DNA from: an uncultured virus (IMG/VR IMGVR_UViG_3300044540_000317)
Taxonomy: Duplodnaviria; Heunggongvirae; Uroviricota; Caudoviricetes
Direction: 5' to 3' (one strand)
Virus record (IMG/VR): IMGVR_UViG_3300044540_000317
Length of the DNA stretch: 64,000 nucleotides
The position numbers and the translations under genes are program-made. Below are positions 8,222 through 42,477 of the stretch, one piece after another. The stretch's first letter is position 1. The number at the start of each line of letters is the position of its first letter. The notes beneath the pieces were generated by a model. It did not search any database. It was not told the DNA's origin and saw only the letters and a program-made list of their open reading frames with translations.

Positions 8222-8305
8222 GCCCTCATCCATAGGCGCGCCCGCACCTCCACCCGCCCCCGTTAGGTACCTCGCCGACCCGGAACGCGGCAGCGGAGGT
8301 GACCC

Positions 8306-8806
8306 ATGGGGACAGCTGAGCGTCTCCGCGACGAGCGGACCGGCCAGTTCCGCGGGTCCCGCGCCGGCGCGGGAGGGCTCCCGCTGGCCCCGTCCCCGGC
8401 ACCGCTCCTGTTCCCGTCCGCGCCGCAGGCCGCCTCGCCCGGCATTGAGCTCCCAGCCCTGGACGACACCGCCAGGGTTCAGGGCCTGCGCACGCTCCTG
8501 AAGGCCGAGCATCCCGGACTGGTTCTTGACCTGAGCGGGCCCGACCGGGGCGGTTTCGTCACCCTGTCGCTCATCTCGGTCCCCCGCACCCTGCGCGGCA
8601 CAGGTGTTGCGACCGCCGTCATGGGCCGGCTGACGGCCGAAGCGGACCGGCACGGCTGGACTCTCGCTCTCAGCCCGGACTCGTCGTTCGGGTCGTCGAA
8701 GGCGCGCCTGGTCGGCTTCTACGGCCGGTTCGGGTTCACCCCGAACCGGGGTGGCACTCGCGACTTCGCCACCCGCGAAACGATGATCCGACGCCCTTCT
8801 CGGTGA
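8306..8806 (+). CDS. GNAT acetyltransferase with N-terminal RDERTGQF leader
   Basis: VPRTLRGTGVATAVM (acetyl-CoA loop), LVGFYGRFGF; GGAGGTGA SD; CGTTAG at 8261. Confidence 0.8.
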   Translation: MGTAERLRDERTGQFRGSRAGAGGLPLAPSPAPLLFPSAPQAASPGIELPALDDTARVQGLRTLLKAEHPGLVLDLSGPDRGGFVTLSLISVPRTLRGTGVATAVMGRLTAEADRHGWTLALSPDSSFGSSKARLVGFYGRFGFTPNRGGTRDFATRETMIRRPSR

Positions 8807-8812
8807 CCGACG

Positions 8813-9448
8813 TCAGCGGACCTCGGCGCGGAGCAGGGCAACCATGACTCGCACATCGTCGGGCAGGTGAATGCTCCCGGCGGCGGCCGCGAGCACCTCG
8901 GGGAAGTCCGCGTAGCTGGCGACGGCGTGCTGCGCCGCACCACCGGGGCATGCCGGGTTCTCCAACGCGACGGCTACCACTCTCATGGCCATCACCCGGA
9001 GGGTCTCCGTCTCTTCGGATGCGACGGCCGACGCAAGGACGACGTCGAGCAGCTCTGGGTCGCGGGTATGCGCGACTGCGAGCATCCGCACGTACGGATG
9101 GAAGTCCGTTCCGGTCGCGAACGCGGCCAGCGCCCACTCGGGGCAGCCCGGCGCCACGATCGACGGGACCGGGTCCGCAACCACCCGAGCGGGAAGCGTC
9201 CGGGCCGGTCGAGCTCGCCACCAGCCCCACGACCGCCACGACGTTCGCGGACCCTGCGCGGGGACCGCGCCGCTCTGCTCGCGCGCGTCGCGGGCGCGGG
9301 CGTACCACTTCGCTTCGTTGTACCAAAGGGCCGGGACCGACGATCTGCGGACGTGGTCCCCCTGCTGCTTCACCCACGCCTCAAGCTGGCTCCGTCGCCG
9401 TTTCGCGGCATGCCGGGCAAGAGCCGCCAGCTGCGCGTCGACCGTCAT
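8813..9448 (-). CDS. Hypothetical protein with LRV-like C-terminus; paralog of 9445..10071
   Basis: Shares GCPEWxLAAFA, YVRMLxxAHTRD and ENPACP with its neighbour; ATGA overlap. Confidence 0.75.
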   Translation of the reverse strand: MTVDAQLAALARHAAKRRRSQLEAWVKQQGDHVRRSSVPALWYNEAKWYARARDAREQSGAVPAQGPRTSWRSWGWWRARPARTLPARVVADPVPSIVAPGCPEWALAAFATGTDFHPYVRMLAVAHTRDPELLDVVLASAVASEETETLRVMAMRVVAVALENPACPGGAAQHAVASYADFPEVLAAAAGSIHLPDDVRVMVALLRAEVR

Positions 9449-10071
9449 TCGGCTTGCGAGAGCAGCGCGGCCATCACCCGCGCCTCTTCCGGCAGGTGCG
9501 GGCTCGCCGCAGCCGCGGCAAGGACGTTCCGGTTATCGCTGTGGAGGGAGATGGCGCGCAACGCGACGTCTGACGGGCAGGCCGGGTTCTCCACGACGAC
9601 CGACGCGACCCGCGCCGCGGAACGCGAACAGTCGCCGACAAGCCGTGCGAGCAGTCCCCGATCTCGGGTGTGCGCAGCGGTGAGCATCCGCACATACGTG
9701 GGGCCGTCCGTGTCGAGCGCGAACGCTGCCAGCACCCACTCCGGGCAGCCTGCAGCGAGGATCGCCCAAACCGGGTTAGTCGCCACATCCCGCGGCAGCT
9801 TCTTACGGGGGTGCGAGTTCCATCGGGTCCAGCGCCGCGGCCGGTCCATGCCGGGAGCGGACCCGATCGTCACCATCGCACGTGGCGCGGTCGCGCTGTG
9901 GTAGGAGCGGGCTTCGGCATGCCAGAGATGCTGGTTCGCCGAACGGAGCACGTGCTCACCCTGACCGGCCAACCAGCTCTCGAACTCGGCCCGCTCATGT
10001 TCCGCGATGTGCTTCGCGATCTCCTGGAACCAACGACTCTGCGGGTTCACCGCGAGCCGCCCCATGCCCAT
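9445..10071 (-). CDS. Hypothetical protein with LRV-like C-terminus; paralog of 8813..9448
   Basis: Same shared blocks; ends SPHLPEEARVMAALL. Confidence 0.75.
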   Translation of the reverse strand: MGMGRLAVNPQSRWFQEIAKHIAEHERAEFESWLAGQGEHVLRSANQHLWHAEARSYHSATAPRAMVTIGSAPGMDRPRRWTRWNSHPRKKLPRDVATNPVWAILAAGCPEWVLAAFALDTDGPTYVRMLTAAHTRDRGLLARLVGDCSRSAARVASVVVENPACPSDVALRAISLHSDNRNVLAAAAASPHLPEEARVMAALLSQAE

Positions 10072-10156
10072 GTCCGGCGAGCGCAGCTCCCGACGGATGC
10101 GGCCAGGAATGAAGCGCTCATGGTAGACCTATGGGCGCCCGCCGCCGGTCACCGCA

Positions 10157-10798: not shown

Positions 10799-10882
10799 CG
10801 GAACCGCCCTTCGCTCTGGAACGACTCCAAAGTAGCGCCCTGCTCGGACATTCCCCCTGTCCAGCGAGCACGGCGACGAGCC

Positions 10883-14509: not shown

Positions 14510-14599
14510 CTTCCAGGGGACTCAGCCCCTGCTATCGGTGCGAGCGCGCGCCGGCGCCCGGCTCTTATGGAGCCTCGGCTGGCATGCTTCGGGAGCGGG

Positions 14600-15262: not shown

Positions 15263-15421
15263 GGGGTCTTCCGGTCTTCGTGGTGCCGCGGTCTGCCCGA
15301 CCGAGCTGCGGGTGGCGGCTTATTCCATCGTGGCAGGGACCACCGTCATCGGGCCGGGCCGATGTGGACGGTCAGCGGCGTCGGAACGACTCGGCGCTCA
15401 CGAACTTGCGAGGAACGCTCC

Positions 15422-16045: not shown

Positions 16046-16112
16046 CCGCACCTGCAGTTCACCGTTAGGCAACGCCGACCCGGAGCGTCCCACGGAAAGG
16101 GCGGTGGCGGCC

Positions 16113-16793
16113 ATGGCCGTGAAGAAGGTTCGCAAGGCTGACGGCTCCGCCGTCTTCGTTCGCACCGGGGAGGGGTCCGGCGGCGGCATCGTCGGCAACG
16201 CGCCCAGTCCGCGGACGCTGCGCGGCATCTCCGCGCCCGGACAGGCCCCGACCGCACTCCTTGACGGCTTGGACTGGCTCGCGGCGAACCCGGGCATCGT
16301 CGTGCCCTACCAGCCGTCCGTGGAAGCTGACCGTCTCGCATTCGCAATGGGAGCCGGGGGTGGAGTCGGAGCCTGGCTCGAACGCCGCAAGGCCCGGCGC
16401 GAGCTCGAGGAGAAGTTCGGCCCGATCGACTGGTCCGACCGGGACCTCGTTCCCGCGCCGACGTTCACCGCGCCCGCCCCGCAGGCGCCCGCGCAGCAGT
16501 CGATGACTGACACTGTCACGATGAGCGCGACCGCGCCTTCACGCTCCGCCGCGACCGACCCGGCCGCGCTTCGCGCGTACAGCGGCCAGTACGGGGTCCT
16601 GTGGTTGCGTGGCGCTGACGGCGACTTCTATCGGATGGCAGACACTGCCCGAATGCTGCACTGCGAGGTCGGCGACCCCGGAGCCGCCGCGGACAGCGAA
16701 TGGCGGCATAAGGAGCACGTCCTGGTCCAGTACGCGTCGTACGCGCTGCGGTACCAGCTCGATGACGTGTTGTTCACCCCGAACTCCGCCTGA
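16113..16793 (+). CDS. Hypothetical protein, possible divergent leader-tagged cargo
   Basis: CGTTAG at 16063, GAAAGG SD, basic/Gly N-terminus (KKVRKADG...GGGIVGNAPSP). Confidence 0.6.
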   Translation: MAVKKVRKADGSAVFVRTGEGSGGGIVGNAPSPRTLRGISAPGQAPTALLDGLDWLAANPGIVVPYQPSVEADRLAFAMGAGGGVGAWLERRKARRELEEKFGPIDWSDRDLVPAPTFTAPAPQAPAQQSMTDTVTMSATAPSRSAATDPAALRAYSGQYGVLWLRGADGDFYRMADTARMLHCEVGDPGAAADSEWRHKEHVLVQYASYALRYQLDDVLFTPNSA

Positions 16794-16880
16794 CGCTGTA
16801 ACGCTTCGACTGAGCATTCCGATGCGGTATAGTAGGGCTGTCCGGCTTTCGCGATCCCCCGGGCGAGAACGGACCAACCC

Positions 16881-17495: not shown

Positions 17496-17556
17496 CGCCA
17501 GCGCGCGGCACAGACCCCGAACCGCCAACTCGCCAAATGAAGGAACCGACCGACTA

Positions 17557-18519: not shown

Positions 18520-18602
18520 CCCCTCGACGGGTTTGGTCGGGTCGGGTGGTGCGATGCGCGTTAGGGTTCGACGGTCAGCAGCGGCCAGTGAAGGGATATC
18601 CG

Positions 18603-18695
18603 ATGCCCGCAACCCGTGACCCGAAAGGCGCCCGCCGCGGAGGAAAGAGCTCCGGCGGCCAGTTCACCGCGAACACGTCCGGAAAGGCCGGCATC
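18603..18695 (+). repeat. Type A leader repeat, copy 1
   Basis: 91 of 93 nt identical to 22352..22444. Confidence 0.95.
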
Positions 18696-19157
18696 ACAGC
18701 ACCAAGCGTGCCGCCGATACCGGGACCTGCGCGTCTTGCGGATGCGGGCCAGGGAAGCTACGGCATGACGCGCGAACAGTTTGAAGCGTTCCTCGCCGCC
18801 CCTCCCCCTGCTCTTGTCAGCATTTCGGTCGAGCAGCTGTCCGACCGCCGCGACCGCACCCTTCTCCTGGGGTACACCGTTAACCGTGACACCTTTCACG
18901 TATACCTCCAAGACGGACTCCTGTGCCGTCACGTCTACTCGTCCGTGTTCCCGGATCGGTCAATCGCGGGATACGAGAACGAGGCTGGGGCGGAGCTTGT
19001 CGTTCAAGAGTTGGTCCCGAACAAGCGCGTGTACCCCCAGTACTGCGACCCGGAGTTTGTCGGGCTCCTCCGGCAGGCGGGCGTCACGGTGCCGTTCACT
19101 AACCACAGCGATCCGGGGCGGGAAGGGCCGTTCTTCGCGAAGACCATGGAGGGGTAG
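18603..19157 (+). CDS. Leader-tagged (type A) hypothetical protein
   Basis: Starts MPATRDPKGARRGGKSSGGQFTANTSGK; GAAGGG SD; CGTTAG at 18559. Confidence 0.8.
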   Translation: MPATRDPKGARRGGKSSGGQFTANTSGKAGITAPSVPPIPGPARLADAGQGSYGMTREQFEAFLAAPPPALVSISVEQLSDRRDRTLLLGYTVNRDTFHVYLQDGLLCRHVYSSVFPDRSIAGYENEAGAELVVQELVPNKRVYPQYCDPEFVGLLRQAGVTVPFTNHSDPGREGPFFAKTMEG

Positions 19158-20278: not shown

Positions 20279-20300
20279 CACGCGCTTCTGTCGCGGCCGG

Positions 20301-22261: not shown

Positions 22262-22351
22262 ACGCCCGCCTGCGGGTATCGACGCGCCGTCCGACCACCC
22301 CGTACCGCGTTAGGGCCCCACAGTCAGCAGCCACGTGAAGGAGACCTCCCG

Positions 22352-22444
22352 ATGCCCGTAACCCGTGACCCGAAAGGCGCCCGCCGCGGAGGAAAGAGCT
22401 CCGGCGGCCAGTTCACCGCGAACACGTCCGGGAAGGCCGGCATC
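22352..22444 (+). repeat. Type A leader repeat, copy 2
   Basis: Near-identical to 18603..18695; upstream GCGTTAGGG...GTCAGCAGC...GTGAAGG is also shared. Confidence 0.95.
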
Positions 22445-22915
22445 GCCGCCCCCGCCGCAGCCCCGGCGAGGAAGCCCGCCCACGGCGGACGGCTCCTGCG
22501 TCACACCGCAGAAACCCGCGCCGAGCTGACCGCGATGCTGCACAAGAAGTTCGACCAGGGCTACTTCCAAGGCTCCTGGGGCCGGATCGGTCGCACCCAG
22601 CACCCCGTCTTCGACGCACTCACCCCCGCCAGCCTCTGTGGCCGCTACACCACCGGCACGACCAGCGCCGAACCGCACGTGCGGGAGAAGTTCTGCCGCG
22701 AGTGCCGCAGCCTGTTCCGCGACGCCGTCACCAGCTGGCTCAAAGGCAAGGAAGGGCAGTTCCTTTCCGACCTCGAAGACGGCGACCCGGAAGCCGCCCG
22801 CAACAGCCTCGACTCCATCCAGCGATTCCGCAGCCTTCTCGCCGCCAGCCCGAAGACATGGGACCTGTCGCTCCGAGGCGTCGACACTGACGAGCTCCCG
22901 CCTCGCCGGCGCTAA
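22352..22915 (+). CDS. Leader-tagged (type A) hypothetical protein with CxxC motif
   Basis: MPVTRDPKGARRGGKSSGGQF; AAGGAG SD; CGTTAG at 22308; H...LCG...CREC. Confidence 0.8.
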   Translation: MPVTRDPKGARRGGKSSGGQFTANTSGKAGIAAPAAAPARKPAHGGRLLRHTAETRAELTAMLHKKFDQGYFQGSWGRIGRTQHPVFDALTPASLCGRYTTGTTSAEPHVREKFCRECRSLFRDAVTSWLKGKEGQFLSDLEDGDPEAARNSLDSIQRFRSLLAASPKTWDLSLRGVDTDELPPRRR

Positions 22916-23257: not shown

Positions 23258-23554
23258 ATGAACTCACACTTACAGGACCCGAAGACCGGAAAGATGGCCG
23301 GCTCGACCGCCGGCCGCGACAACGTCCCCGTTGCACCCACGCCCGCGCCGGCGCCGTTTCCCTCCGGCACTCGAGTCCGGCACGCCGACACACCAGCACC
23401 TTCCGGGTGCCGGTGGTGCGGTCACGAGCAGCGCGGCCACGGCCACTCGTTCGTACGCAGCGTCGGCGGCCACCGATGGGAGCCACCGACCATGGCGCAG
23501 CGCCTTGCCCGCATGCGCGCACGGCGCGCAGCCCGACTATCCGCGCAGCGCTGA
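23258..23554 (+). CDS. Leader-tagged (type B) small Cys/His protein
   Basis: MNSHLQDPKTGKMAGSTAGRDNVP; GCRWCG...H...HRWEPPT...RMRARR; GAAAGG SD. Confidence 0.75.
   Translation: MNSHLQDPKTGKMAGSTAGRDNVPVAPTPAPAPFPSGTRVRHADTPAPSGCRWCGHEQRGHGHSFVRSVGGHRWEPPTMAQRLARMRARRAARLSAQR
23273..23329 (+). repeat. Type B leader repeat, copy 1
   Basis: Differs from 23590..23646 only at four synonymous third positions. Confidence 0.93.
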
Positions 23555-23574: not shown

Positions 23575-24348
23575 ATGACCTCCTACCTGCAGGACCCGAA
23601 GACCGGGAAGATGGCCGGTTCGACCGCAGGCCGCGACAACGTCCCGGCTACGCCCGGCCAGGCTCCCGCCACGTTCGCCAACAACGCGCCGGCGGCGCAC
23701 ATCCCCGAGCTCGCGGACCTGTACGACGCATTCGTCGCCGAGCACAACCGGCCGCCAGTCATCGGACTTGACCTGGACGGCACCACCGCCGACATGGTCG
23801 CCAACCTTCGCGGTCGAGTAGCCGAAGCTCGCGGCATTGCCGCCGACCGGGCCACGTTGCCCGACCCGGACGACTACTTGATGTGGCAGGGCAGCGCCCC
23901 CTGGTTCGCCTCCAAGGAAGACTTCCTCGGCCATTTCCAAGCAGCCGAACGGGATGGCATGTACCGAGAGCTCGGAACCTACGAGGGCGCAGTCGAGGTC
24001 CTCCGCACCCTCGCTGAGCATGGATTCGTTATCCACGCGGTCACCGCTCGCAGCGCCACCTACAACAACGACACGCAGGCATGGCTCGACGCCCAGGGCA
24101 TCCCGGCAATCCAAATCCGTAACCCCGGATTCGACAAGCACACACTCGGCGACGTCGACGTGTTCATTGACGACGCTCCTCACGTCATTGACGGGCTCGC
24201 AAACGCCGGCCGGTCGGTCGTCGTGTTCGAGCAGCCCTACAACGCCGACAACCTGCCGGCAGCAGACCATGTCAAGACCATGACCCGCTGGGAGGTTCAG
24301 CAAGTCGCCAACGCGCTACGCGCCCTCCTGAACACCGGTCACCAGTAA
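23575..24348 (+). CDS. Leader-tagged (type B) HAD-family 5'(3')-deoxyribonucleotidase (NT5C-like)
   Basis: IGLDLDGT, VTAR, DVFIDDAPH, QPYN; CGTTAG 9 nt before ATG. Confidence 0.85.
   Translation: MTSYLQDPKTGKMAGSTAGRDNVPATPGQAPATFANNAPAAHIPELADLYDAFVAEHNRPPVIGLDLDGTTADMVANLRGRVAEARGIAADRATLPDPDDYLMWQGSAPWFASKEDFLGHFQAAERDGMYRELGTYEGAVEVLRTLAEHGFVIHAVTARSATYNNDTQAWLDAQGIPAIQIRNPGFDKHTLGDVDVFIDDAPHVIDGLANAGRSVVVFEQPYNADNLPAADHVKTMTRWEVQQVANALRALLNTGHQ
23590..23646 (+). repeat. Type B leader repeat, copy 2
   Basis: Encodes QDPKTGKMAGSTAGRDNVP. Confidence 0.93.
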
Positions 24349-24370: not shown

Positions 24371-24463
24371 ATGGCCACGACACGTGACCCGAAAGGCGCC
24401 CGCCGTGGCGGAAAGAGCTCCGGCGGCCAGTTCACCGCGAACACGTCCGGCAAGACCGGCGTC
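24371..24463 (+). repeat. Type A leader repeat, copy 3
   Basis: RDPK...SGK core has only synonymous changes relative to copies 1 and 2. Confidence 0.93.
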
Positions 24464-24853
24464 GCCGCGCCAGGCGCAGCACCTACCGACTTCCTCGGAA
24501 CCGTCCGCGAGGGGCTCGCAGCCGCGCACAAGCAGGTCGAAGTGCATGAGGCCCAGCTGTACCGCCACGGCCATGCCGGCGTGACCGCCCTGGCCCGGCA
24601 GATGTTCCCGACCGCCGCGACTATCGAACTCGTCGACGCAAGCGATTCCGGAGGCTCACCGTACTTCCTCGCTCACCGCATCCTAGACGCGGCCGGCGAC
24701 GAGCTTTGGAGCGTCGAAGCCAGCTACGGCAGGAGCGACGCCATCCAGGATCTGCTCGGCGAGTTCACCCCCTACTTCGACCGTCACATCCCCGAAAGCG
24801 AACGCCGCCACACGTATCTCGGCAACGACGTCTGGGAAGTCACTCTCGGCTGA
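24371..24853 (+). CDS. Leader-tagged (type A) hypothetical protein
   Basis: MATTRDPKGARRGGKSSGGQFTANTSGK; GAAAGGG SD. Confidence 0.8.
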   Translation: MATTRDPKGARRGGKSSGGQFTANTSGKTGVAAPGAAPTDFLGTVREGLAAAHKQVEVHEAQLYRHGHAGVTALARQMFPTAATIELVDASDSGGSPYFLAHRILDAAGDELWSVEASYGRSDAIQDLLGEFTPYFDRHIPESERRHTYLGNDVWEVTLG

Positions 24854-29062: not shown

Positions 29063-29106
29063 CTTCTCGGGCCTGCTCTCATCGTCGCGTCGTAGTTCCT
29101 GCCTCC

Positions 29107-29128: not shown

Positions 29129-29253
29129 GGCTCAGGGCGTCACCAACATCGGCGCCGGGCGAGATTCGCAACGATTGGAAATCTCGCCCGGCCTACTCCC
29201 GACAGATACCCGCCCCGATACCGCGTTAGGACCCCAGCACGAAAGGACGCGAC

Positions 29254-29649
29254 ATGGCTGACCACATCCAAGACCCGAAGACCGGCCGGCTCGCCGGCAG
29301 CATCGGCTGCGGCCGCGACACCGCGCCGGCCTCCCCGCGGACCGAGCTCGCCGCCCTGCACGCAGCCCGCGACCGAGCGTTCACGGAACAGACTGACGCG
29401 AACTGGGAAGCAACCCGCGACCAGCTCGTCGCCCGTTACGGCCTCGGTAACCACGACATCGCCCGCGTCTCCAGCCACCGGCAGGCCCACCCCGGAGTGT
29501 GGACCGGGACCGTGACCGTCCGCGGCCGACGGCTGCGCGCCCGCACCATTCTTGGAACGACGGAACGCGCCCTCTACCGGCACCCACTCGTCGGCCGTCC
29601 GCTCACCCGCGAGCAGCTCGCCGACCTCGTCGGACCGACCTCGACATAA
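29254..29649 (+). CDS. Leader-tagged (type B) hypothetical protein
   Basis: MADHIQDPKTGRLAGSIGCGRDTAP; GAAAGGA SD; CGTTAG at 29224. Confidence 0.78.
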   Translation: MADHIQDPKTGRLAGSIGCGRDTAPASPRTELAALHAARDRAFTEQTDANWEATRDQLVARYGLGNHDIARVSSHRQAHPGVWTGTVTVRGRRLRARTILGTTERALYRHPLVGRPLTREQLADLVGPTST

Positions 29650-29830
29650 GCGCCATAGCCCCCGAGGGTCTTCCCGGCTGGCTGATCACCGGCGCGCCGC
29701 GGTGACAACGGCTCCGGCAAGCCCGGCGACCAGCTGACCGCCCTCGCCGAGCTCGCCAAGCTGCGGACCCGTTAGAGCTCCCCTGACCGCCGCGCCCCAG
29801 CTGCGCGGCGCTGAGCGACGGGAAGGCGAC

Positions 29831-30403
29831 ATGGCCAAGCACGACTACCTGCAGGACCCCACGACGGGAAAGATGGCCGGCTCCGCCGCCGGTGCACGCC
29901 GTACCCCCTCCGCCCCCGCCGCTGCGCCCGTCGCGTTCCAGCCAGAGCCCGGCGCGAGCCCCGCTCGGGTCGCGTACCTCGCCGCGATGGAGGCCCGCGA
30001 GATCGCCCGCCATCACCGGAACGCCATGTCGGACCTTGTGACCCACCCATCCGGCCGCGGCGCCGACTACATCATCTTCTCCGCCGAAGGTCTCCCCGTC
30101 CGCACCGCCACCCTCGACGGCGAGTTCACCGCCCGGCACGGCGACCCCGCACTATTCGCCGCACTCGACGAACACGCCCCGTACATCACCGCCCACGAGG
30201 GCATGTTCGACGACGCCCGCATGTACGGCGGGCGGATCTCTCTCGATGCCGCCGAACGCGCCCTCCCGGTCCTCAAGCGATGCGGCATCGACGGATGCAT
30301 CTACCGAACCGGCCCCATCGGCAGCTACCCCCGCCATAGCCCCACCACCGGCTGCCACTACGGCGGCGTGCTGCGGCACTGCATGTGTTCCCGCTGCTTC
30401 TGA
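29831..30403 (+). CDS. Leader-tagged (type B) hypothetical protein with Cys-rich tail
   Basis: MAKHDYLQDPTTGKMAGS; GGAAGG SD; CGTTAG at 29770; ends HCMCSRCF. Confidence 0.78.
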   Translation: MAKHDYLQDPTTGKMAGSAAGARRTPSAPAAAPVAFQPEPGASPARVAYLAAMEAREIARHHRNAMSDLVTHPSGRGADYIIFSAEGLPVRTATLDGEFTARHGDPALFAALDEHAPYITAHEGMFDDARMYGGRISLDAAERALPVLKRCGIDGCIYRTGPIGSYPRHSPTTGCHYGGVLRHCMCSRCF

Positions 30404-30550
30404 GCTGACGGCTCCCACGTGCGGCCAGGTCACGCTCGTCAAGTGGCGAGACACGGCGCGACGAGAAGTAGCCGATAGTTCAGGGGAAGAAGCTTCTTCG
30501 CCTCGTACTGCGGTGACTTTCGCCGCTATCTCAAGAGGAACCGAACCGCC

Positions 30551-33500: not shown

Positions 33501-36500
33501 CCGCCAACCTCGTCAGCCTGCCGAGCACCACAACGTCCACGACAGTCCCGAACGGGGTCACGACCTACACGGCAGGCGTCGGCTACTCAACCGCGTTCGA
33601 AGCGAGCTACACCAACAACACCGACACCGCTCAAACGTTCACCACCACTCTCGTCGGCGTGCAGGTAGCCCCAGCGTTCACCGGCACGAGCATCGCCAAC
33701 ACGGCCACATTCCGCAGCGACAGCGCCCCGACCGGCGGCACCGCCCTCACCCCGGTGACGGCCACATCAACCCTTCCGGTCATTCGCCCGCGCCCGACCA
33801 TCTCCAAGACGGTCACCCCGTCAACGGTCTCTGCTGGCCAGACGGTCACGTACACGCTCACCGCAAACAACACAGCGGGAAACCCTGCGGGATACGACAG
33901 CATCATCATCGACTGTCTCCCGACCGCGATCACCTTCCTCGCCGACGTCACACTGCCGTCAGGAGTTACTCGCAACGCCCCCACGCCGGGAACCGGAACG
34001 GGGGCGGGTCAGAACGGCTGCGCCAACACGACCAACCTCATCCAGTACAACCTTGGAACAATCAACCCCGCCACCCCGATCGTCATTCAGTTCTCAGCCA
34101 CCGTTAGCCCCACCGCCGCCGGCCTTGCAACCCAGACCAACACGGCACGGGTTCTCACCTCCACGCTTGACAATGGAACCCGCGACGCAACTATCGAAGG
34201 CCTCTTCACATCAACGACCGCGAACGCGACCACCACAGTCACTGGCGCCACAGTAACGAAGACGACGACCGCACCCACCGCAACCGTCGGCGGGACAGTC
34301 CCCTACACCATCACCGCCACAATCCCCGCCTCGGTGAACTTCTGGAACGCAGCCGTCATTGACACAGTCCCCGCCGGGATCCTCCTCAATCAAGCGACCA
34401 CCGTCGTCACCTGCACTGTGGCCGTGACGCTTGCGGACTGCGCGGCCGACCTCCCGGCAGGCGGCGCACCCCTGACCGCAACATCCACCCAAGCTGGCTG
34501 GTACCTCGGCAGCATCACCGCGAACCCGGCCGTCCGAACGGTCACAATCACAGTCGACGCAACCGTCCGCGACACGCCTGGCAACGTCCTCGGCGGAACG
34601 CTAACGAACACAGCCAAACTCTCCTGGAGGAACGCCGCCGGTAGCGCGCCAGCGAATGCCGGCTCCACGTTCGACCGCAGCACAACGGTCAACGCCGGCT
34701 CCACCGCCGTGACAACCATCCAAGAGCCGCAGCTCTCCATCACGAAGACGAACTCCGACACGACCCCCAACCCGGGCGACACGTTCACCTACACGGTTCG
34801 AGCGACCAACGCGAACAACGCAAACACTTCAACTGCATACAACGTCACCGTGACCGACACAGTCCCCACCGGTGTTGTCGTCAACCCGAGCTCAATCGGC
34901 AACGGCGGAACCATTGCCGGCGCCGGAGCAAACGGTGGAGGCGTCATCACCTGGCCGAACCTCACCATCGCCCGCAACGTTCAACTCGACCTCACCTACG
35001 AGGCAACCCTCGCCCCATCCCCGAGCCTGACGGCCGCCGCACTAACCAACACGGCACGGATCACCACTTACGCATCCCTACCGTCCGGGGGGCGCACCTA
35101 CACGAACCCCGTACCGACCGCCACGTCGACCGTCACGCCGCAGTTCCCCTCGGTGGACATCTCTAAGGCCACCCCCGGCGGCACGCTCGCTTACGCCGGA
35201 ACTCCCTTCACCTGGCGCCTCACTCTCGCGAACGACACCGACGCCGCACCGACCGCAGGCGCCTCAGTCGCAGACGTGCTCCCCAAGCACTGGAACTACG
35301 TCACAGGTTCCGCACTCGTCACCGTCGGCTCGTCTACGACCCAGATTGACCCGTCGGTAGCGACCGTCAACAACGTCCAGACGCTCACGTGGGCAACCCT
35401 GGGCGGCATCGACCCCGGTGGGACAATCCTCATCACCTATCAGGCCACGCCCGCGACCGACGCCCTCGTCGACCCCGGCTCGGGTACTTCCATCCCCCAC
35501 ACCAACACATTCTCGGCCGTAGCAACCGACGCGACCGCCGCGACCGGAAATGCGACCGGAAACTACGCAGCAGGACCCGCCTCGGCCAACGCCTTCATCG
35601 CATCAGCTGACCTCTCCGTCACGAAGGCGAGCCCAGGAACCCTCATCGCAGGCCAGACCACATCGAACGCTTGGACCATCACCGTCCGGAACGCGGCCGG
35701 TTCGGATGTCGCCGTCGGGCCCTTCCAGGTAGTCGACACGGTAGATGCGCTACCGGCGGGTGTCACAGTCGGCCAGCCGGCAGGTAGCGGCTGGAGCTGC
35801 ACTGCACCGACCGTCGACGGCGACTTCACCTGCACGCGCACCGACGCCAACGACACCCTCGCCGAAGGAGCATCCTTCCCGGCAATCGCCGTTCCAGTCT
35901 CCGTCGCAGCCGACGTACCCGCCGCGACCGAAATCCTGAACACCGTGTCCGCCACGGCCCGAACGTCCGACCCGAACCTGGCGAACAACTTCGACGACGC
36001 CATCCAGACGACCACCGTTCAGTCTGACCTGGCGATCGGGAAGTCGACCTCGGGGACGCTCCTCGCCGGACAGACAGCGACCTGGCAAATCGACGTCCGC
36101 AACCTGGGCAGCTCGGTAACCAGCGGCATCACCACCGTCACCGACACGATCCCCGCAGGCGTCACCAACGTCTCCGCTTCCGGGATCGGGTGGAGCTGCG
36201 CGCCGCCCGCAGCAGGAAACCTTGTCTGCCAAACGTCGACGTCGTTCCTAGGTTTCGCGCCAGCCTTGATTGTTACCGGAGACATCGACTCGAGTGTCAC
36301 CGGGGATGTGACGAACGTTGCAACCGTCACCGGCATCAACCCTGACCCGACGCCGTCAAACAACACCGCCTCCACGACCGACCCGGTCGGCACGGACACG
36401 ACACTCCTGCTGCAGAAGTCGCTCGATAGTGGGACCGTGATCGCAGGGAACACCGTCCAATACCGACTTGACGTGAACAACGCAGGCCGCGCCGACGCGC

Positions 36501-38857
36501 GCAACGTCATCATCGTCGACCCGCTCCCGAACGGGCTCACCTTCGCCGGCAACGTCACATCGATCGTCGGCACATGGTCATGCACGGAAACGAACTCGAC
36601 GCCTTCCACGGTCACCTGCATCCTGTCCGGAACCCTGCCCGCGTCGGGGTCAGACACCGCATCCGTCTCGTTCGCAGCGCTCGTGCCCTCTAGCCTGCCG
36701 CTCGGCACACAAGTGGAGAACACCGCCACCGCTTCCGCGGACAATGCGACAGATGTCAGCGACTCCGCCACCGGGGAACCGCTCGGCGAAAGCGACCTCG
36801 CGCTCGTGAAAGCCCTCACCTCCTCGTCGCCGGTCGCTGGAGGCACGGCCACGTACCGGCTCGACGTCACCAACTACGGCCCGACCGACAACGTCGGCAG
36901 CATCACCGTCACCGAAACTCCGCCCGCCGGGTTCCGAATCACCGCCATCGCCGGTTCGGGTTGGACATGCTCCACCATTGCCGGAGGTGCGTCAGCGACC
37001 TGCTCGTGGGACACCGGACTGGTAGCCAACGCGTCCGCAACCGCCATTACCGTGACGGCAACGATCGCGCCCAGCGTGTCGGCCGGCGAGCACATCAACA
37101 CCGCGTCCGCTGCCGGCATCAGCGACTACGCCGACCCGAACCTGGCCAATAACACCGACGACGCCGCCGCAACCGTCTCCACAGACTCGGCGCTCACGAT
37201 CGTCAAATCAGGTGAAGCGACCCTCATTCCCGGAACGGCGACGTCGTACACGATCACCGTCACAAACGCCGGCCCCTCCAACGCGACCGATGTCCTCCTC
37301 GCAGACCTGCTCCCCCCGGGCATCACCGCGACCGCACTCACCGGCTCCGGCTGGTCCTGCTCCCTCGCAACCGCAACGTGTGAGATCGCGTCCCTTCCAG
37401 TCGGTTCCAGCAGTATCCTTGTCGACGCAACAGTTGCCGCGAACGTTGCGGACGGAGCTCAGCTCACCAACACGGCGACAGTCGAGTGGGGGGATTCGTC
37501 CGGCCGGGACTCCGCCACCGCAGACTTCACGGGGACAGCGGCAACCTCCGCCGACTTGTCGCTCGTCAAGACCGCCACTTCCCCCGAAGCGACCGCCGGT
37601 ACGACGGGCACCTATGAGCTGTCAGTCGCGAACAACGGCCCCTCGGACGCAAGCGGTCCGATTGTCATCACCGACACCCTTCCGGCCGGACTGACCTACG
37701 TTAGCGCCACATCGGCCGGAGACGTCTGGACATGCGCGCCTCTCGCCGGCGACCCGCAGATCGTCGAATGCACCCTCCCCGACGGGATTGCTGCCACAGG
37801 CACAGCTCCGCTGCTCACGATGGAGGTCCTCTTCGCGGCAAACCACGCCGGCGGCGACACGATCAACATCGCATCCGTCGACTCCCCAACCGATGACCCC
37901 AACCCGGCCAACGACAGCAGCACCGCCACCGTGACCGTCAATCAGAGGGTCGACCTGGCCGTCACCGAGACGCTCCTCGACGGCACCGTCCGAATCGGGA
38001 ACACGGTCACGTTCGGCTACGAAGCGACCAACAACGGCCCCTCCGCAGCTAACGACGTCTCTGTGCGCATCCTTCTCCCTGCCGGCCTCGCAGATGTTGA
38101 TACGGCTGGTTCCGACCCTCGATGGTCGTGTCAAATCTCTACCGTTTCCGGTAGCAATCTGACCGAGATCGTGTGTCTGCTCTCGGGAACATTGGGGGTG
38201 GGCGAAACCGCACCGCCGCTCACCGCATCCGCCCGCATCGAGGCGATCGGCTTCCCCGAGCTCATCACCGAGGTGACCGTCGAAACGCCTGCGCAAGAAA
38301 TCACTTACGTGAACAACGCAGACGGCCACGCCTACCCGGTACCGCCCCTCGTTGGCCTCAACATTGCCAAGACGAACAACGGGCCGGTCCAAGCAGGGGA
38401 ACAGGCCCACTACATCATCACCGTCACGAATCTTGGTCTCACGTCAGCGCCTGACGGATTCACCGTCATCGACACACTGCCTGAAACTCTCACCTTCCGT
38501 TCCGCCGAAGGTGGAGGTGCGGCATGCTCAGCTAGCGGACGAGTCGTCACCTGTCTGTTCACTGATGAACTTGCCGTGAACGCTTCTGTGTCGGTCAACA
38601 TCTACGTCAATGTTGCCCTCTCCGCAGTCGGCGCGATCACGAACACCGCTGCCGTCTCGACTGACAACGAGAACCTGAGCGGCTCAACCGTTGTCGCCTC
38701 AAACACGGTCATCGCTTCCGCTCCGGCACCAGGCCGGCTGTCGACCGCCGGAGCTTCCGCTCTGACGGGGACAATCGCGCTCCTTGCGGTGAGCGCGCTG
38801 ATAGTCGGGTCCGCCCTCCTCATCATGGGCCGAAGGCGGCGTCGACACGTCGCGTGA
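30551..38857 (+). CDS. Giant cell-surface protein (2768 aa) with DUF11/isopeptide-type Ig repeats and sortase-like anchor
   Basis: Signal peptide (APARA); repeated DLxxxK...G..xTYTITVTNxGPS...DxLPxG...WSC...NTA units; C-terminal LSTAG, TM helix, RRRRRH. Confidence 0.9.
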   Translation: MNTTMPIPGRLALAVRRTHRALAATLSLLFIATALAVLTPAAPARADSTLSLSSESSGSILAGETTTIDMVATNISAGTNLYNLTFTHELPTGVTYVPGSTAPTPIGNPRIIVVTTTPDPLFPLDTVDHQVLIWSNVSDLVAGSSSSLSFAVHADPTLYPVGSTFDKTSNAYANTDPRYLPKFNPTTGAAITGATSYTHTDTVSPQNTQVAAIDIQKTNPNPESELVRGVHAQTSTFTITARNTDQADTESVVIVDYLPAGLEFLGCGGIDNSSAREFPGAPALTATPTPANCLTPNSVSTVLDPAGQPSGIYTRIEWQIGTLTAAAPTNVRTIRYAVAVPLYANTMTFPSGTPTAASLTQTANLDNNTGSSTRHIGAAASFRNAVTATGTYTGPVAPTASSTVTSSASNTVRAMDIAVTTTASSSNFVAAQPFTYTMLVRTGEYASASAITLTDTVPNGICPLVPAGTTIFGTLPPDCAAVGTVSGATINSVTANPDGTFTIDFAIIPATLTPNSTINVQYTALFRANYTGSEDPTASGDTFATGTSISGTTTPVSDTGFTTTEFAFDGSGTSHASSTPTIEKLVLPRQGIANVNECRNAYGQYVADASTIPGGQFVQGDRICFQLKINFSDTVDTRNAQITDFVPVGTSYESYTLGTPTEGSTVPAGQVSTPSDPDVPVWRLGAPLGTNPDNLFIARGSVLVMFVSAIVDDPSPTTSVDITANLMKYSQENTSGQVYALRAQADFAVAPAPTLGITKGISAVNGSANTLPYPSSGTLTGGQYADFVIDVNHQGSQAAGNDQDITEHTVWDALPEPLTCANITNISAAGTCTDNFAGFAGSANVGRSAITWTVATTLTAGSVADSLTYRVTLPSPGLTPDTDYINATSVTSYRIDTTSGSSAFYPEDSLDLGAQTSWNVAAANATATITTPAVTVAKSYTTPAVTSANTATNAVAGELITYTYSVTIPARTTVYNATLDDSLPANLVSLPSTTTSTTVPNGVTTYTAGVGYSTAFEASYTNNTDTAQTFTTTLVGVQVAPAFTGTSIANTATFRSDSAPTGGTALTPVTATSTLPVIRPRPTISKTVTPSTVSAGQTVTYTLTANNTAGNPAGYDSIIIDCLPTAITFLADVTLPSGVTRNAPTPGTGTGAGQNGCANTTNLIQYNLGTINPATPIVIQFSATVSPTAAGLATQTNTARVLTSTLDNGTRDATIEGLFTSTTANATTTVTGATVTKTTTAPTATVGGTVPYTITATIPASVNFWNAAVIDTVPAGILLNQATTVVTCTVAVTLADCAADLPAGGAPLTATSTQAGWYLGSITANPAVRTVTITVDATVRDTPGNVLGGTLTNTAKLSWRNAAGSAPANAGSTFDRSTTVNAGSTAVTTIQEPQLSITKTNSDTTPNPGDTFTYTVRATNANNANTSTAYNVTVTDTVPTGVVVNPSSIGNGGTIAGAGANGGGVITWPNLTIARNVQLDLTYEATLAPSPSLTAAALTNTARITTYASLPSGGRTYTNPVPTATSTVTPQFPSVDISKATPGGTLAYAGTPFTWRLTLANDTDAAPTAGASVADVLPKHWNYVTGSALVTVGSSTTQIDPSVATVNNVQTLTWATLGGIDPGGTILITYQATPATDALVDPGSGTSIPHTNTFSAVATDATAATGNATGNYAAGPASANAFIASADLSVTKASPGTLIAGQTTSNAWTITVRNAAGSDVAVGPFQVVDTVDALPAGVTVGQPAGSGWSCTAPTVDGDFTCTRTDANDTLAEGASFPAIAVPVSVAADVPAATEILNTVSATARTSDPNLANNFDDAIQTTTVQSDLAIGKSTSGTLLAGQTATWQIDVRNLGSSVTSGITTVTDTIPAGVTNVSASGIGWSCAPPAAGNLVCQTSTSFLGFAPALIVTGDIDSSVTGDVTNVATVTGINPDPTPSNNTASTTDPVGTDTTLLLQKSLDSGTVIAGNTVQYRLDVNNAGRADARNVIIVDPLPNGLTFAGNVTSIVGTWSCTETNSTPSTVTCILSGTLPASGSDTASVSFAALVPSSLPLGTQVENTATASADNATDVSDSATGEPLGESDLALVKALTSSSPVAGGTATYRLDVTNYGPTDNVGSITVTETPPAGFRITAIAGSGWTCSTIAGGASATCSWDTGLVANASATAITVTATIAPSVSAGEHINTASAAGISDYADPNLANNTDDAAATVSTDSALTIVKSGEATLIPGTATSYTITVTNAGPSNATDVLLADLLPPGITATALTGSGWSCSLATATCEIASLPVGSSSILVDATVAANVADGAQLTNTATVEWGDSSGRDSATADFTGTAATSADLSLVKTATSPEATAGTTGTYELSVANNGPSDASGPIVITDTLPAGLTYVSATSAGDVWTCAPLAGDPQIVECTLPDGIAATGTAPLLTMEVLFAANHAGGDTINIASVDSPTDDPNPANDSSTATVTVNQRVDLAVTETLLDGTVRIGNTVTFGYEATNNGPSAANDVSVRILLPAGLADVDTAGSDPRWSCQISTVSGSNLTEIVCLLSGTLGVGETAPPLTASARIEAIGFPELITEVTVETPAQEITYVNNADGHAYPVPPLVGLNIAKTNNGPVQAGEQAHYIITVTNLGLTSAPDGFTVIDTLPETLTFRSAEGGGAACSASGRVVTCLFTDELAVNASVSVNIYVNVALSAVGAITNTAAVSTDNENLSGSTVVASNTVIASAPAPGRLSTAGASALTGTIALLAVSALIVGSALLIMGRRRRRHVA

Positions 38858-38942
38858 CGGCCGGCGTTAGAGCTCAACTATTGGCCGCCGCCCGGAACTC
38901 AGATCGACTGCCGGGCGACGCGACCTCGAAGGGGGAAGCTTC

Positions 38943-39422
38943 ATGCTCAACCGAAACCGTCAACTCCGCCGGGACCGTCAAGGGCGTTTCGCCCGCTCGC
39001 ATGCTGTCGCGACCGCGACCCCGAACACCCCCTTCCCGGCACCCACCCTCCTCCCGGCGGCGTTCGACTCACCTCGCGCAGCGTTCCAGGCCGAGCTCGA
39101 AGCTCACCTGGCTCGGGCGACCGCCAAAGCGATCCGCGAGCTGACCGCATTCGAGACCTACGAGGGGCCTCATCTCATCGTGACCGTACGGACACCTTCC
39201 AGCACCGCTCGCGTTTCCGAGATGGAGGAAGGGATCTGGGAGGCGGTCACGTCACCGCATACCGTCGGCGCCGCACCGCAGCTCGGCGGACCTTTCCGCA
39301 CCAAAGCCGAAGCTCGATCCTGGGCCGAGAGGACCGCGCTCGACGTCCACGTCGCTCGCACTCATGAGCGAGTCATCGCCGCAGCCCTTGACGGTCTACG
39401 CGCCGGTTCCGCTCACGCCTGA
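38943..39422 (+). CDS. Leader-tagged hypothetical protein (RRDRQGRF)
   Basis: MLNRNRQLRRDRQGRFARS plus Pro linker; GAAGGGGG SD; CGTTAG at 38865. Confidence 0.72.
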   Translation: MLNRNRQLRRDRQGRFARSHAVATATPNTPFPAPTLLPAAFDSPRAAFQAELEAHLARATAKAIRELTAFETYEGPHLIVTVRTPSSTARVSEMEEGIWEAVTSPHTVGAAPQLGGPFRTKAEARSWAERTALDVHVARTHERVIAAALDGLRAGSAHA

Positions 39423-39445
39423 AACGCTCGCCGGAGGAAGCCGGC

Positions 39446-40270: not shown

Positions 40271-40288
40271 GAATGAGCCTTCCGCCGA

Positions 40289-40316
40289 CGATGGGTTCGA
40301 TTAATGCAACCCATCG
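40289..40316. terminator. Inverted repeat between the 40350 gene and the dNMP kinase gene
   Basis: CGATGGGTT-N10-AACCCATCG; overlaps a minus-strand CCGATG. Confidence 0.4.
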
Positions 40317-40349
40317 GCCCGCCGGAGCCACCGCGAGACCGGACGGTCG

Positions 40350-40832
40350 TTACCCCCAAACGAGCTGGAGCTTGCGGTCGGCGGCGTACTGCGCCACCGT
40401 CCGCAACGCGCCAAGCTGGACCTGCGCATATCCTTCCGGGCGGCCGCACTCGACGAAGTTCCCCACGCGAACGGCGGGAACGCCAGCGTCAACCGGGGCG
40501 ACAGCGAGCGCCACGAGAACGCGACCGAGGAAGTCCTCGCCCGACATGCTCCCCGCGCAGCGGTCTTCGAAGCGGTCACCGACGCGAATGCCGAGCACGT
40601 CGAGGATCTCGGCCGCGTTGTGGTTCGAGACGTTCACGTCCGGGGCGGCGTTCACCTCGACGATGGCGAAGAACTCGCAGTAGGGGTTCTTGCACCCGTT
40701 GCGGGCGCCCGCGACTGCCGCCTGGTACGCCGAACGGTAGTCGGGGTACTGCCCGACCGGAGCGGCGCCGTTGCACGGGCACCCGATCTGGTGCGGCCCG
40801 TCAACAAACTCCGGGCTAAACGTAACCGACAT
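40350..40832 (-). CDS. Hypothetical protein
   Basis: GAGAGGGAG SD; CPC...CKNPYC, VNVSNHNA; TGTCGG-N10-GACAGT upstream (40861-40882). Confidence 0.7.
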   Translation of the reverse strand: MSVTFSPEFVDGPHQIGCPCNGAAPVGQYPDYRSAYQAAVAGARNGCKNPYCEFFAIVEVNAAPDVNVSNHNAAEILDVLGIRVGDRFEDRCAGSMSGEDFLGRVLVALAVAPVDAGVPAVRVGNFVECGRPEGYAQVQLGALRTVAQYAADRKLQLVWG

Positions 40833-40965
40833 GACGCTCCCTCTCTCGCGGACAGTGCCTACTGTCGCAGGCACCTCCGACATTCGTACAGCGCCCCTGT
40901 CCGGACACCTCGCCGGCGTGCAGTTAGGTATCCATTCCACGCTGAACCGCACTCCAGGAGGACCC

Positions 40966-42477
40966 ATGCCTGCCGCACGCGAGAATCGCGGCGCCAAGCG
41001 CTCCGGCGTCAGCATCGGAGGGCAGTTCGCGCCAGACCGGTCAGGCATCCGAGGCGTTCGGGCCCGTCCCGAAGCGCCCACTACCGCTTCCCCCTATGAG
41101 GTCGGCGAGGCTTCCGAGCTGGCCGACATTGACATCTGCACCGTCTGCGAAGGTCCGATCCTCCCCGCAGACGAGGGTGCCTGTCAGGCCTGCGAGCAAG
41201 CCGCCTACGAAGCGGCCCTCAGTAGCTCGCTACCGGACGACGTACTCGAACGTGCGCTCGCTGAAGACGCAACTGCCCAGCCGCCCGTCCGGACCGTTTC
41301 CGAGTTCGAGCTGCCACCCGAGCTCGACACGACCGTCTCCTCGCTCGCGCGGGCCGTCGTCGACGGCGACCCTGCCGCCGCAGCGGACCTGCGCGCGCAA
41401 CTCACCGAACAGATTGCTCGCCTCCCAGTCCAGGCCATCCCGGCGCCCTTCTCCAGCGACCCCGTAGATCCGGCCGAGCTCCCCCATACGGCAGGCATCT
41501 ACATCATCACCGGGCCCGACGCCTCCTATGTCGGCCTAGCTAAGGACATCCACCAACGCTTCTACAACCGCGACTACGGCCATCTGACAGAGAACAACCA
41601 CTGCCGGTCCCGCTTCATCCTCGACGGGGATGACTACGAAATTCGAGTCATCCCCGTCGACGCGAGCGAAGACGGCCGTGAGGCTCAGCAGTACGCGCTC
41701 GCCGAAGCAGAAATTCGCGCCTACGCCCAACTGCACGCCGCCGGCCACTATCCGAACAACGCCTTGGCGACCCTCGGCCGAGTCGGTGACGGGAAGGTCA
41801 TTCCGATCGTCGCCTGTGACCTGGCGACCGGCGAGTACACCTTCTACGAGTCGACGATGGCCGCCACCCGCGACACCGGCTCAACCTCGATCGCTGCCGC
41901 GCTGCACGGATACCAGCGCATCGCCGCCGGCCGGGTCGTGCGGTGGGCGACGTTCGGCGAGCAGGAGCTCCTTCTCGACAAGACCGACCGGGCGGGGAAA
42001 CTCACCGGCGAGATCGTCACGAAGGCTCTGTCCATTCAGCCGCGCTCGGTCGACTGGGGCGAAACTCGCGAGGGTGGGCGCGGAGCTGACTTCTCGTGGT
42101 CCGGTGGCGCCCTCGCCGCCGACGACATCACCACGCTACGGCCCTATGTCCGCGGCGTGGGCTCATATAACAAGAACCGCCCTACCAGCGGCTACTACGG
42201 CGTGCGCAGCCTTGGCGACGAAAGCAAGTGGGAAGTTCGCATCAAGACCGGGCCCGGCCCGCGCGACGCGATCACTAAGACGTTCGCTGACGCGCACGAG
42301 GCGGCCGTCTACCGGGAGTCCTATATCACCGACAATGGCCTGCAGGCATATAACAACGGGGTGGGGGCCTCGAACGCAGACGCGCTCAACTTCCACTTCG
42401 GAGCAAGGCAGTTCACCGGATGGGACTCTTCGCCCGGCCGTCGCGCTGCCGCCGACGGGGCCGCTGCCGCCGCCTAA
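40966..42477 (+). CDS. Leader-tagged GIY-YIG endonuclease with NUMOD1-like and AP2-like DNA-binding domains
   Basis: AGGAGG SD; MPAARENRGAKRSGVSIGGQF; CTVC..CQAC; GIYIIT...YVGLAKDIHQR; YESTMAATR; TSGYYGV...KWEVRI...FADAHEAAVYR. Confidence 0.75.
   Translation: MPAARENRGAKRSGVSIGGQFAPDRSGIRGVRARPEAPTTASPYEVGEASELADIDICTVCEGPILPADEGACQACEQAAYEAALSSSLPDDVLERALAEDATAQPPVRTVSEFELPPELDTTVSSLARAVVDGDPAAAADLRAQLTEQIARLPVQAIPAPFSSDPVDPAELPHTAGIYIITGPDASYVGLAKDIHQRFYNRDYGHLTENNHCRSRFILDGDDYEIRVIPVDASEDGREAQQYALAEAEIRAYAQLHAAGHYPNNALATLGRVGDGKVIPIVACDLATGEYTFYESTMAATRDTGSTSIAAALHGYQRIAAGRVVRWATFGEQELLLDKTDRAGKLTGEIVTKALSIQPRSVDWGETREGGRGADFSWSGGALAADDITTLRPYVRGVGSYNKNRPTSGYYGVRSLGDESKWEVRIKTGPGPRDAITKTFADAHEAAVYRESYITDNGLQAYNNGVGASNADALNFHFGARQFTGWDSSPGRRAAADGAAAAA

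Follow-up and report, generated by a model that had tools for sequence, protein, structure and literature searches.

Related N-terminal leaders on unrelated proteins of a phage-like element suggest a candidate docking peptide

The window analysed here is the whole 64,000-nucleotide stretch of IMG/VR record IMGVR_UViG_3300044540_000317, from an uncultured virus assigned to Caudoviricetes. Ten of its genes, or eleven with a diverged copy at position 16104, open with a related leader of 30-40 residues. These leaders are homologous, restricted to the N-terminus, modular, swappable between subtypes, conserved across relatives of very different composition, and accompanied by a common upstream box. 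A sequence-only reading of the window had proposed a shared tag on unrelated proteins, and the leader is indeed a portable protein-level module carried by unrelated bodies; the tagged proteins are not full-length paralogs. We tentatively interpret it as a docking peptide by which tagged proteins may enter the particle and reach the next host together with the DNA, an interpretation that we rank first while granting it somewhat less than an even chance.

All ten leader starts listed in the sequence-only reading are present as described there. The type B and intermediate leaders carry the motif [YH]-[LI]-[QR]-D-P-x-T-G-[KRQ]-[MLF]-x-G-S, with Ala before G-S in the aligned set, and type A leaders take the form RDPKG...GGQF, followed by a Pro/Ala linker. 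The core motif is followed by a spacer of small residues, then by an invariant Pro and another conserved segment, P-x-A-P-x-x-A-P-x-x-[FL], which was seen in type B and the intermediates over ~36 aligned residues. The Pro/Ala "linker" therefore belongs to the leader module itself. Every copy lies at the start of its open reading frame (ORF), after a Shine-Dalgarno-like run.

Three genes, on the + strand like all leader genes of the window, carry type A: 18603..19157 (leader 18603-18722; 83.9 bits in the leader profile search), 22352..22915 (leader 22352-22471; 82.4 bits), which is the first of a four-gene leader run, and 24371..24853 (leader 24371-24490; 82.4 bits). Their DNA is 83-84% identical over 129 nt, an identity that spans from ~23 nt before the ATG to ~105 nt inside the ORF, and the first 38-43 residues are 79-87% identical. 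The gene at 40966..42477 (leader 40966-41085; 77.0 bits) bears a diverged type A copy, 41-49% identical to the others (E 9e-9 to 3e-7). Type B, recognized through repeat families and alignment, fronts 23258..23554 (leader 23258-23362; 73.7 bits), 23575..24348 (leader 23575-23679; 70.3 bits), 29254..29649 (leader 29254-29358; 62.4 bits), and 29831..30403 (leader 29831-29947; 64.7 bits). Two intermediate leaders complete the set of ten, namely ..RLRDERTGQFRGSRAGAGGLPLAPSPAPLLF in 8306..8806 (leader codons 1-40, 8306-8425; 60.6 bits) and ..QLRRDRQGRFARSHAVATATPNTPFPAPTLL in 38943..39422 (leader 38943-39062; 60.5 bits, and E 2e-12 in the exhaustive search described below). Pairwise BLASTP of leaders and bodies, run against a small database with composition correction off, ties the intermediates to type B (23258-8306, E 4.5e-9; 29831-8306, E 1.5e-6; 29831-38943, E 2.4e-4), and N-terminal matches within and between these two groups range from E 1e-20 to 2e-4.

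Leader profiles built from six-copy and four-copy training sets score their own copies at 60-84 bits, whereas the next-best six-frame match in the window reaches ~11 bits, compared with up to 14.8 bits on reversed sequence. Given this gap, the leader set is sharply bounded and not a chance motif, and the six-frame profile search returned no further copy in the window. Sequence comparison ties types A and B together only weakly and without significance (BLASTP E 0.02-0.08; hhalign probability 1.5%). We treat the two types as one system by context, because the same body occurs behind either type (24371 and P0007, below), because both types share their position and linker, and because they share the upstream box.

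The absence of a hydrophobic stretch, noted in the sequence-only reading, was borne out. Taken over the first 50 residues of each of the 11 proteins, the highest 11-residue Kyte-Doolittle mean ranges from 0.40 to 1.23, and a Sec/Tat-type hydrophobic core is thus absent. The first 30 residues carry a net charge of +1 to +6 (+1 to +2 in type B). AlphaFold2, applied to a six-leader alignment, gave a mean pLDDT of 76, with a beta-bridge at residues 6-13 across the DPKTG turn as the sole structural element, which is weakly consistent with a hairpin-like turn and a flexible tail behind it. Over residues 1-40, searches of Pfam, PHROG, NCBIfam, and PDB gave no overlapping match. PDB profile searches with alignments A6 and A8 returned nothing under E 0.69, and a leader look-up in the ESM Atlas gave scores of 0.85 or lower with no named family. 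At the codon level, type B cores differ by 3-5 synonymous codons of 13 per pair. A strain variant of 22287-22482, found in another freshwater metagenome on a single contig at depth 2, shows 10 differences, 6 of which fall in the 22352 leader; codons read by eye assign five of these as silent and one as a replacement.

The bodies behind the leaders have little in common. Past residue 45, no significant pairwise similarity was detected among them (best E 0.04), in line with the earlier claim of unrelated cargo, and full-length paralogy of the tagged proteins was dropped on this ground. The body of 23575 was correctly named as a HAD nucleotidase and belongs to the NT5C/HAD 5'-nucleotidase family (PF06941, E 3e-12, residues 61-224). 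Two other assignments stood in part. For the GNAT-like 8306, the Pfam score (16.8 bits) falls under the cut-off of 27, and a match to phrog_10691 (E 3e-23) supports the assignment; this body aligns with an internal stretch of a 3925-position PHROG profile, a length that suggests a polyvalent-type giant protein. For 40966, the proposed GIY-YIG nuclease rests at a sub-threshold match to PF01541 (15.4 bits; cut-off 22.6), and we call it GIY-YIG-like. The body of 23258 matches phrog_20506 from residue 40. Those of 18603 (no Pfam or PHROG match), 22352, 29254, and 29831 could be assigned to no family, the last being Cys-rich. Homologs of several bodies exist elsewhere without a leader: the PHROG matches begin at residue 57 (HAD), 40 (23258), and 59 (GNAT), and an NT5C homolog on L001, a 174-kb viral contig, begins directly at the HAD motif.

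Comparison with tagged proteins from elsewhere makes the modularity explicit. The body behind the type A leader of 24371 and that of its ortholog P0007, which carries a type B leader, share 50% identity over 109 aa (E 5e-34). The same body thus occurs with different leaders, and the leader types are interchangeable. Other orthologs have retained a leader, including P0034 (70% identical to 8306) and P0027 (54% identical to 29831, E 6e-46). The candidate at ~16104, presented as weak in the sequence-only reading, belongs here as well. This gene (16104..16793, + strand; leader ~16104-16250, ..VRKADGSAVFVRTGEGSGGG..APSP..SAPGQAPTALL) scores at noise level with the type A profile (4.4 bits), while three other lines of evidence support a diverged, probable leader: a GTTAGG box at -40, a 5' untranslated region (UTR) stretch in common with 8306, and a body homologous to P0008 (E 2e-7). 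P0008 has a clear leader, of which its homolog 16104 keeps a blurred version.

We then followed the family outside the window. Exhaustive hmmsearch with six type B and intermediate leaders against 1.84 billion representatives (E<=1e-3) yielded 19 proteins, of which two were the window's own and 12 others matched from residues 2-8 to residues 25-40. The remainder consisted of P0022 (971 aa), in which DYIQDPxTGRFQGS occurs twice, both times internally, and four repeat proteins. Two of the latter, P0013 and P0020, are small proteins with a signal peptide and four tandem P-A-R-D-P-K-T-G-R-F-[VI]-K repeats; P0014 and P0019 have low-complexity repeats. A word-index search of longer proteins with an 18-leader alignment scored 8000 candidates and returned 32 proteins at E<=1, including six from the window and 17 that were new. 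Single-leader word-index searches recovered the window's own proteins only, and a tblastn search of phages and plasmids with P0021 and P0032 gave no match.

The concentration of hits at N-termini that the sequence-only reading foresaw is pronounced. In 30 of the 31 non-window proteins, counting two further cluster members, the leader begins at residues 1-8; in the remaining one, P0028 of the P0016 family, the gene call is extended upstream. The wider consensus reads M-x(1-6)-[YHF]-[IL]-[QK]-x(2-4)-G-[KR]-L-A-G-S-I-G-D-G-[KR]-x3-P. Across the 18-sequence alignment, D, T, G, G, S, and G are near-invariant and P is invariant. Members with K/N/I-rich bodies have the same peptide, which is thus kept across very different compositions; one member is source-labelled Actinomycetota, and several relatives occur two per contig on contigs of 76-186 kb. 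P0023 and P0029 share a contig of 85,896 bp, and P0021 and P0032 one of 130,754 bp; P0017 lies on 76,097 bp, P0035 on 186,286 bp, and P0033 and P0045 on contigs of 30-55 kb. A conserved nucleic-acid-level element, such as a translational operator, was dropped as an explanation because of this retention of the peptide in relatives of different composition. Together, the 40 tagged proteins from the window and outside fall into 31 body clusters. Named bodies outside the window include GNAT, GGACT, an SNF2/DEAD helicase (926 aa), DUF7178, a ParB-C-like domain, and zinc ribbons; among 29 scanned relatives, 23 lack a Pfam family and 23 lack a PHROG family.

Upstream of the leaders, the window holds a second shared feature. 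GTTAGG occurs at 11 sites, and six of these lie 29-44 nt (four at 43-44 nt) before leader-gene starts, all on the + strand: 8262..8267 (44 nt before 8306), 16064..16069 (40 nt before 16104), 18560..18565 (43 nt before 18603), 22309..22314 (43 nt before 22352), 29225..29230 (29 nt before 29254), and 40923..40928 (43 nt before 40966). None of the remaining ~39 predicted genes has GTTAGG within 150 nt upstream (binomial P ~1e-13). The other leader genes lie downstream on the same strand, in the runs 22352-23258-23575-24371 and 29254-29831 onward to 38943, and could be co-transcribed with the box-bearing ones. Since the box precedes six leader genes and the others follow on the same strand, the tagged genes look like one regulon, with GTTAGG as its putative promoter element. 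Two further + strand sites, 57622-57627 and 54221-54226, have no predicted gene start behind them; the former lies just after dnaG, opposite a NurA-like gene.

The sequence-only reading had also pointed to similar peptides in MuF and other head-associated phage proteins, and such peptides are present in IMG/VR. Two weak matches to the type B leader were found there, one of which carries YHDPHTGRFASG in a long prohead-protease ORF whose protease domain ends just upstream of the match. A YHDPxTGRF pattern located 25 sites, 22 of which are preceded by N-P even though the pattern does not require it. Most are followed by a Gly-rich tail, and several contigs have two sites. These sites represent 19 distinct ORFs, and 17 were scanned against Pfam, leaving out two near-duplicates. 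NPYHDPxTGRF lies behind Phage_portal_3 (one ORF), Phage_Mu_F (one), and Peptidase_S78 (two), which substantiates that association, and in front of Zeta_toxin (one) and CdiA_C (one). The remaining ORFs gave DUF3626 (one), a sub-threshold tail-hub match (one), or no family (nine); in several of the YHDPxTGRF ORFs the motif stands 12-40 residues from the start. Comparison of the viral motif with the leader family by hhalign gave 88% probability over 17 columns, the viral set having been collected with a pattern taken from a leader-like match. No Pfam, PHROG, NCBIfam, or PDB entry covers the junction motif, and tblastn of a 36-residue viral-motif stretch against phages gave matches at E >=3 only, including a phiPSA1 protease match that lacks the motif.

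Two cases bridge the leader and its viral look-alike: P0022, with its internal DYIQDPxTGRFQGS copies, and contig L002, in which both motif variants occur in succession beside a prohead protease. At L002:1600-3276 (L023 represents the same place), a protease-fusion ORF with YHDPHTGRF ends in TGA, and DDYIQDPKTGRM follows directly and in frame. The frame past the TGA continues through DDYIQDPKTGRM into the next ORF, whose first ATG follows the motif. This arrangement could reflect read-through of the stop codon, use of a rare start codon, or a nonsense change of recent origin.

As for the element itself, we read the window as belonging to a large phage-like mobile element, at least 124 kb long and of freshwater origin, with a G+C content of 67% (actinobacterial type) and an actinobacterial-type host. 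In the protein collection, its proteins map to a contig of up to 124,169 bp. G+C across the window is 63-71%. Three freshwater metagenome runs cover the window DNA almost entirely, with short pieces in others, and no RNA dataset was listed as covering it; the runs with a minor share contribute short contigs from the same or a near-identical element. Megablast of 25 kb of the window found no near relative among deposited phages or plasmids. The window encodes replication and nucleotide functions (DnaE, GyrB, an intein-bearing GyrA, DnaG, a T4-type dNMP kinase, and the NT5C nucleotidase), a ClpC-like ATPase, a Dam methylase, an HD protein, a metallophosphatase, a Cas4-like exonuclease, a 2768-residue DUF11 surface protein, and an S8 protease with FN3 repeats. 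Many other ORFs could be assigned to no family, and several small ones match PHROG families of unassigned function. DnaE is 46-54% identical to actinophage DnaE and likewise to actinobacterial plasmid DnaE; being about equally distant from both, it does not decide between phage and plasmid.

Our preferred interpretation assigns the leader a role at the protein level, as a portable docking peptide with three parts: a basic D-P-x-T-G turn motif flanked by hydrophobic residues, a Gly/Ala-rich spacer ending in the invariant Pro, and the Pro/Ala linker (AP..AP..F). This peptide fronts many unrelated accessory enzymes and small proteins, in this element and in scattered uncultured elements, and the tagged genes would form one co-regulated set with a GTTAGG box before each transcription unit. 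All tagged proteins would dock to one common element-encoded receptor, and docking would be followed by uptake into the particle and delivery with the DNA to the next host. Other phages may reach the same end by fusing effectors behind portal, MuF, or prohead-protease domains, with the look-alike NPYHDPxTGRF at the junction. Packaging is ranked first because a similar motif could be placed only on head-interior proteins and effector domains, and because the bodies resemble the polyvalent and MuF-toxin spectrum; the T4 precedent, recounted at the end, adds to this ranking. A broader proposal, in which a widespread and so far undescribed turn motif, D-P-x-T-G-[KR]-hydrophobic with a Gly-rich tail, generally directs proteins to the tailed-phage head interior, serving as an N-terminal cargo tag here and as an effector junction elsewhere, strikes us as conceivable and rather doubtful.

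Several observations count against packaging. Scans with Pfam, PHROG, and NCBIfam found no capsid, portal, terminase, tail, head protease, or conjugation gene in the window, and hence none that would decide between phage and plasmid. The leader genes do not form a late module and are interspersed with genes for DnaE, gyrase, dNMP kinase, nucleotidase, and exonuclease. Three pattern scans of 2.9 million IMG/VR contigs returned no N-terminal leader copy, nor did pattern scans of JGI metagenome contigs and GTDB species genomes, and the 1.45 Mb of sequence that surrounds DnaE genes on 80 viral contigs likewise contained none. Degenerate DNA leader patterns gave chance-like internal matches only (nine in metagenome contigs, 15 + 5 in IMG/VR, and eight in GTDB). 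The RDPKTGRF repeats of P0013 and P0020, which are signal-peptide proteins, mean that the turn motif alone is not specific to phage heads. The hhalign tie between viral motif and leader extends over ~17 columns and is in part circular, since the viral set came from a search whose pattern had been taken from a leader-like match. Scored with an HMM of the viral motif, the best window leader reaches 6.8 bits, versus 5.3 for a control.

The same gene neighbourhood lends itself to another explanation, which we hold to be unlikely on balance: the leader would dock proteins to an intracellular hub, either a replication/nucleotide-metabolism factory or a host hub, as part of an early/middle regulon. 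The leader genes stand among those for DnaE, GyrB/GyrA, DnaG, the dNMP kinase, the HD protein, the metallophosphatase, and the Cas4-like exonuclease, and many bodies act, or are predicted to act, on nucleic acids or nucleotides (NT5C, SNF2 helicase, GIY-YIG-like, and ParB-C-like). The shared promoter-like box and the failure of pattern scans to find the leader in IMG/VR also fit such a hub. On the other hand, the leader does not resemble known hub-binding motifs (the clamp motif QL[SD]LF and the SSB tail), many bodies are small and without family, and the viral look-alike sits on head proteins and toxins instead of replication proteins. The lack of any copy in the 1.45 Mb around DnaE genes, listed above against packaging, tells against this explanation as well.

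We regard as distinctly improbable that the leader is a degron or processing signal read by a protease or by the ClpC-like unfoldase of the window (1059-3434, - strand). The window does encode this 791-aa Clp_N-AAA-AAA_2 ATPase, which has a VGF tripeptide, read by eye, at what we take to be the ClpP-docking-loop position. The leaders are N-terminal, basic, and unstructured except for one turn, and the internal copies in P0022 and in the viral fusions lie at domain junctions that would be plausible cleavage sites. Such a signal leaves the conserved Pro/Ala linker unexplained, and it is unclear why ~30 unrelated proteins would need a single timed degradation signal. Co-folding of the leader with residues 1-170 of the ATPase scored 0.00 in both runs, a result that, with controls not folded, speaks neither for nor against binding. 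The ATPase is ClpC/ClpA-like, with a double AAA+ arrangement and two Clp_N repeats; it has no ClpB middle domain, and all of its NCBIfam matches are under cut-offs.

A third possibility, that promoter and leader form a cassette which recombination spreads and which gives new genes a place to land, the peptide being a by-product without protein function, appears to us quite remote. It would account for the extent of type A DNA identity on both sides of the ATG, for the joint travel of upstream box and leader, and for the 5' UTR stretches common to cassette pairs. It does not account for the retention of the peptide in relatives with very different body composition, or for the way in which silent changes pile up while core residues stay, and the near-invariant D, T, G, G, S, and G and invariant P of the 18 sequences indicate selection on the peptide. 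Least probable of all, we think, is a small basic hairpin that binds nucleic acid or another polyanion, which might also carry proteins into the particle by sticking to DNA: the net charge, the predicted beta-bridge across the DPKTG turn, and the tandem RDPKTGRFVK repeats in small basic proteins agree with it, whereas the basic charge of type B leaders is weak, the signal peptides of the repeat proteins mean that these are not bound to DNA, and no known DNA-binding family is matched.

Some neighbours of the leader genes deserve mention in their own right. The ORFs at 8813-9448 (-) and 9445-10071 (-) are tandem paralogs with overlapping stop and start that adjoin leader genes, as does 24896-25444 (-), a third helical-repeat protein with a faint HEAT match. 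Because such repeat proteins often bind peptides, these three are candidate readers of the leader. Within the leader-gene run lies the DUF11 giant (30551-38857, +; 2768 residues), an unusual protein for a phage-like element, in which ten DUF11 repeats are accompanied by a pilin-like Cna-B domain and a C-terminal membrane anchor. A SpyTag-like partnership between the leader and this DUF11/pilin-like giant was dropped, given that the tagged proteins have no export signal. Farther away, the GyrA gene (46623-51089, +) contains an intein with Hint and LAGLIDADG domains that splits the topoisomerase domain, and an ORF cut by the window start (1-1041, +) has a PemK/MazF-like toxin domain at residues 172-270, after a long N-terminal part.

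Full-text searches of open-access papers and preprints found no relevant paper for the leader or junction motif strings. Address peptides of this kind, N-terminal and common to several proteins, are already known; what appears to be new is this family, its spread, its promoter box, and its possible kinship with the junction motif. The common tag turns a list of unassigned genes into a functional set, and since a single reader would handle all tagged proteins, one receptor would explain ~30 protein families. Were that receptor part of the particle, tagged proteins would be those that uncultured large phages bring into the next host, such as anti-defence or take-over factors, and the tag would offer a compact peptide for loading foreign proteins into capsids. 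Should the general head-interior address hold, the injected protein arsenal of uncultured phages could become readable from sequence, and the tag would define here a regulon that has its own promoter box and comprises at least 11 proteins. The coupled GTTAGG box makes that regulon testable, and the NPYHDPxTGRF junction motif merits its own description.

Three known systems invite comparison. In MuF polymorphic toxins and polyvalent proteins, diverse effector domains (GNAT, helicase, nuclease, and toxin) travel with mobile elements (PMC5576092, PMC5512222); term searches of both full texts found no words for such a motif. The window resembles this group in its effector-type body spectrum and in the match of the GNAT body to a giant PHROG profile; the look-alike NPYHDPxTGRF stands at MuF/portal/protease-effector junctions in viral contigs. 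It differs in that the window proteins are free-standing, with the motif at the very N-terminus; Pfam and PHROG scans found no MuF (PF04233), portal, or protease domain in any of the 11 tagged proteins.

Encapsulin cargo-loading peptides are short, disordered terminal peptides with a Pro/Ala/Gly linker that dock enzymes inside an HK97-fold shell. The window has no shell gene, and the known loading motifs are unlike the leader. In phage T4, the internal proteins IPI-III and Alt carry a capsid targeting sequence of ~10 residues that ends in a prohead-protease site (L/I-x-E). The sequences are unrelated, and the present leader is longer, at 30-40 residues, and contains both a turn motif and the Pro/Ala linker. 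Across three leader alignments, no prohead-protease cleavage motif ends the leaders; their conserved end is G-x4-P followed by AP..AP. In the window, no prohead protease, scaffolding core, or other T4-type head gene was found, and the elements that carry the leader family differ greatly in composition. The resemblance to T4 lies in the design, a short, portable, non-hydrophobic N-terminal peptide placed on unrelated proteins of one phage and probably read by one partner, just as here a common N-terminal peptide stands on the otherwise unrelated products of 10-11 genes of one element.

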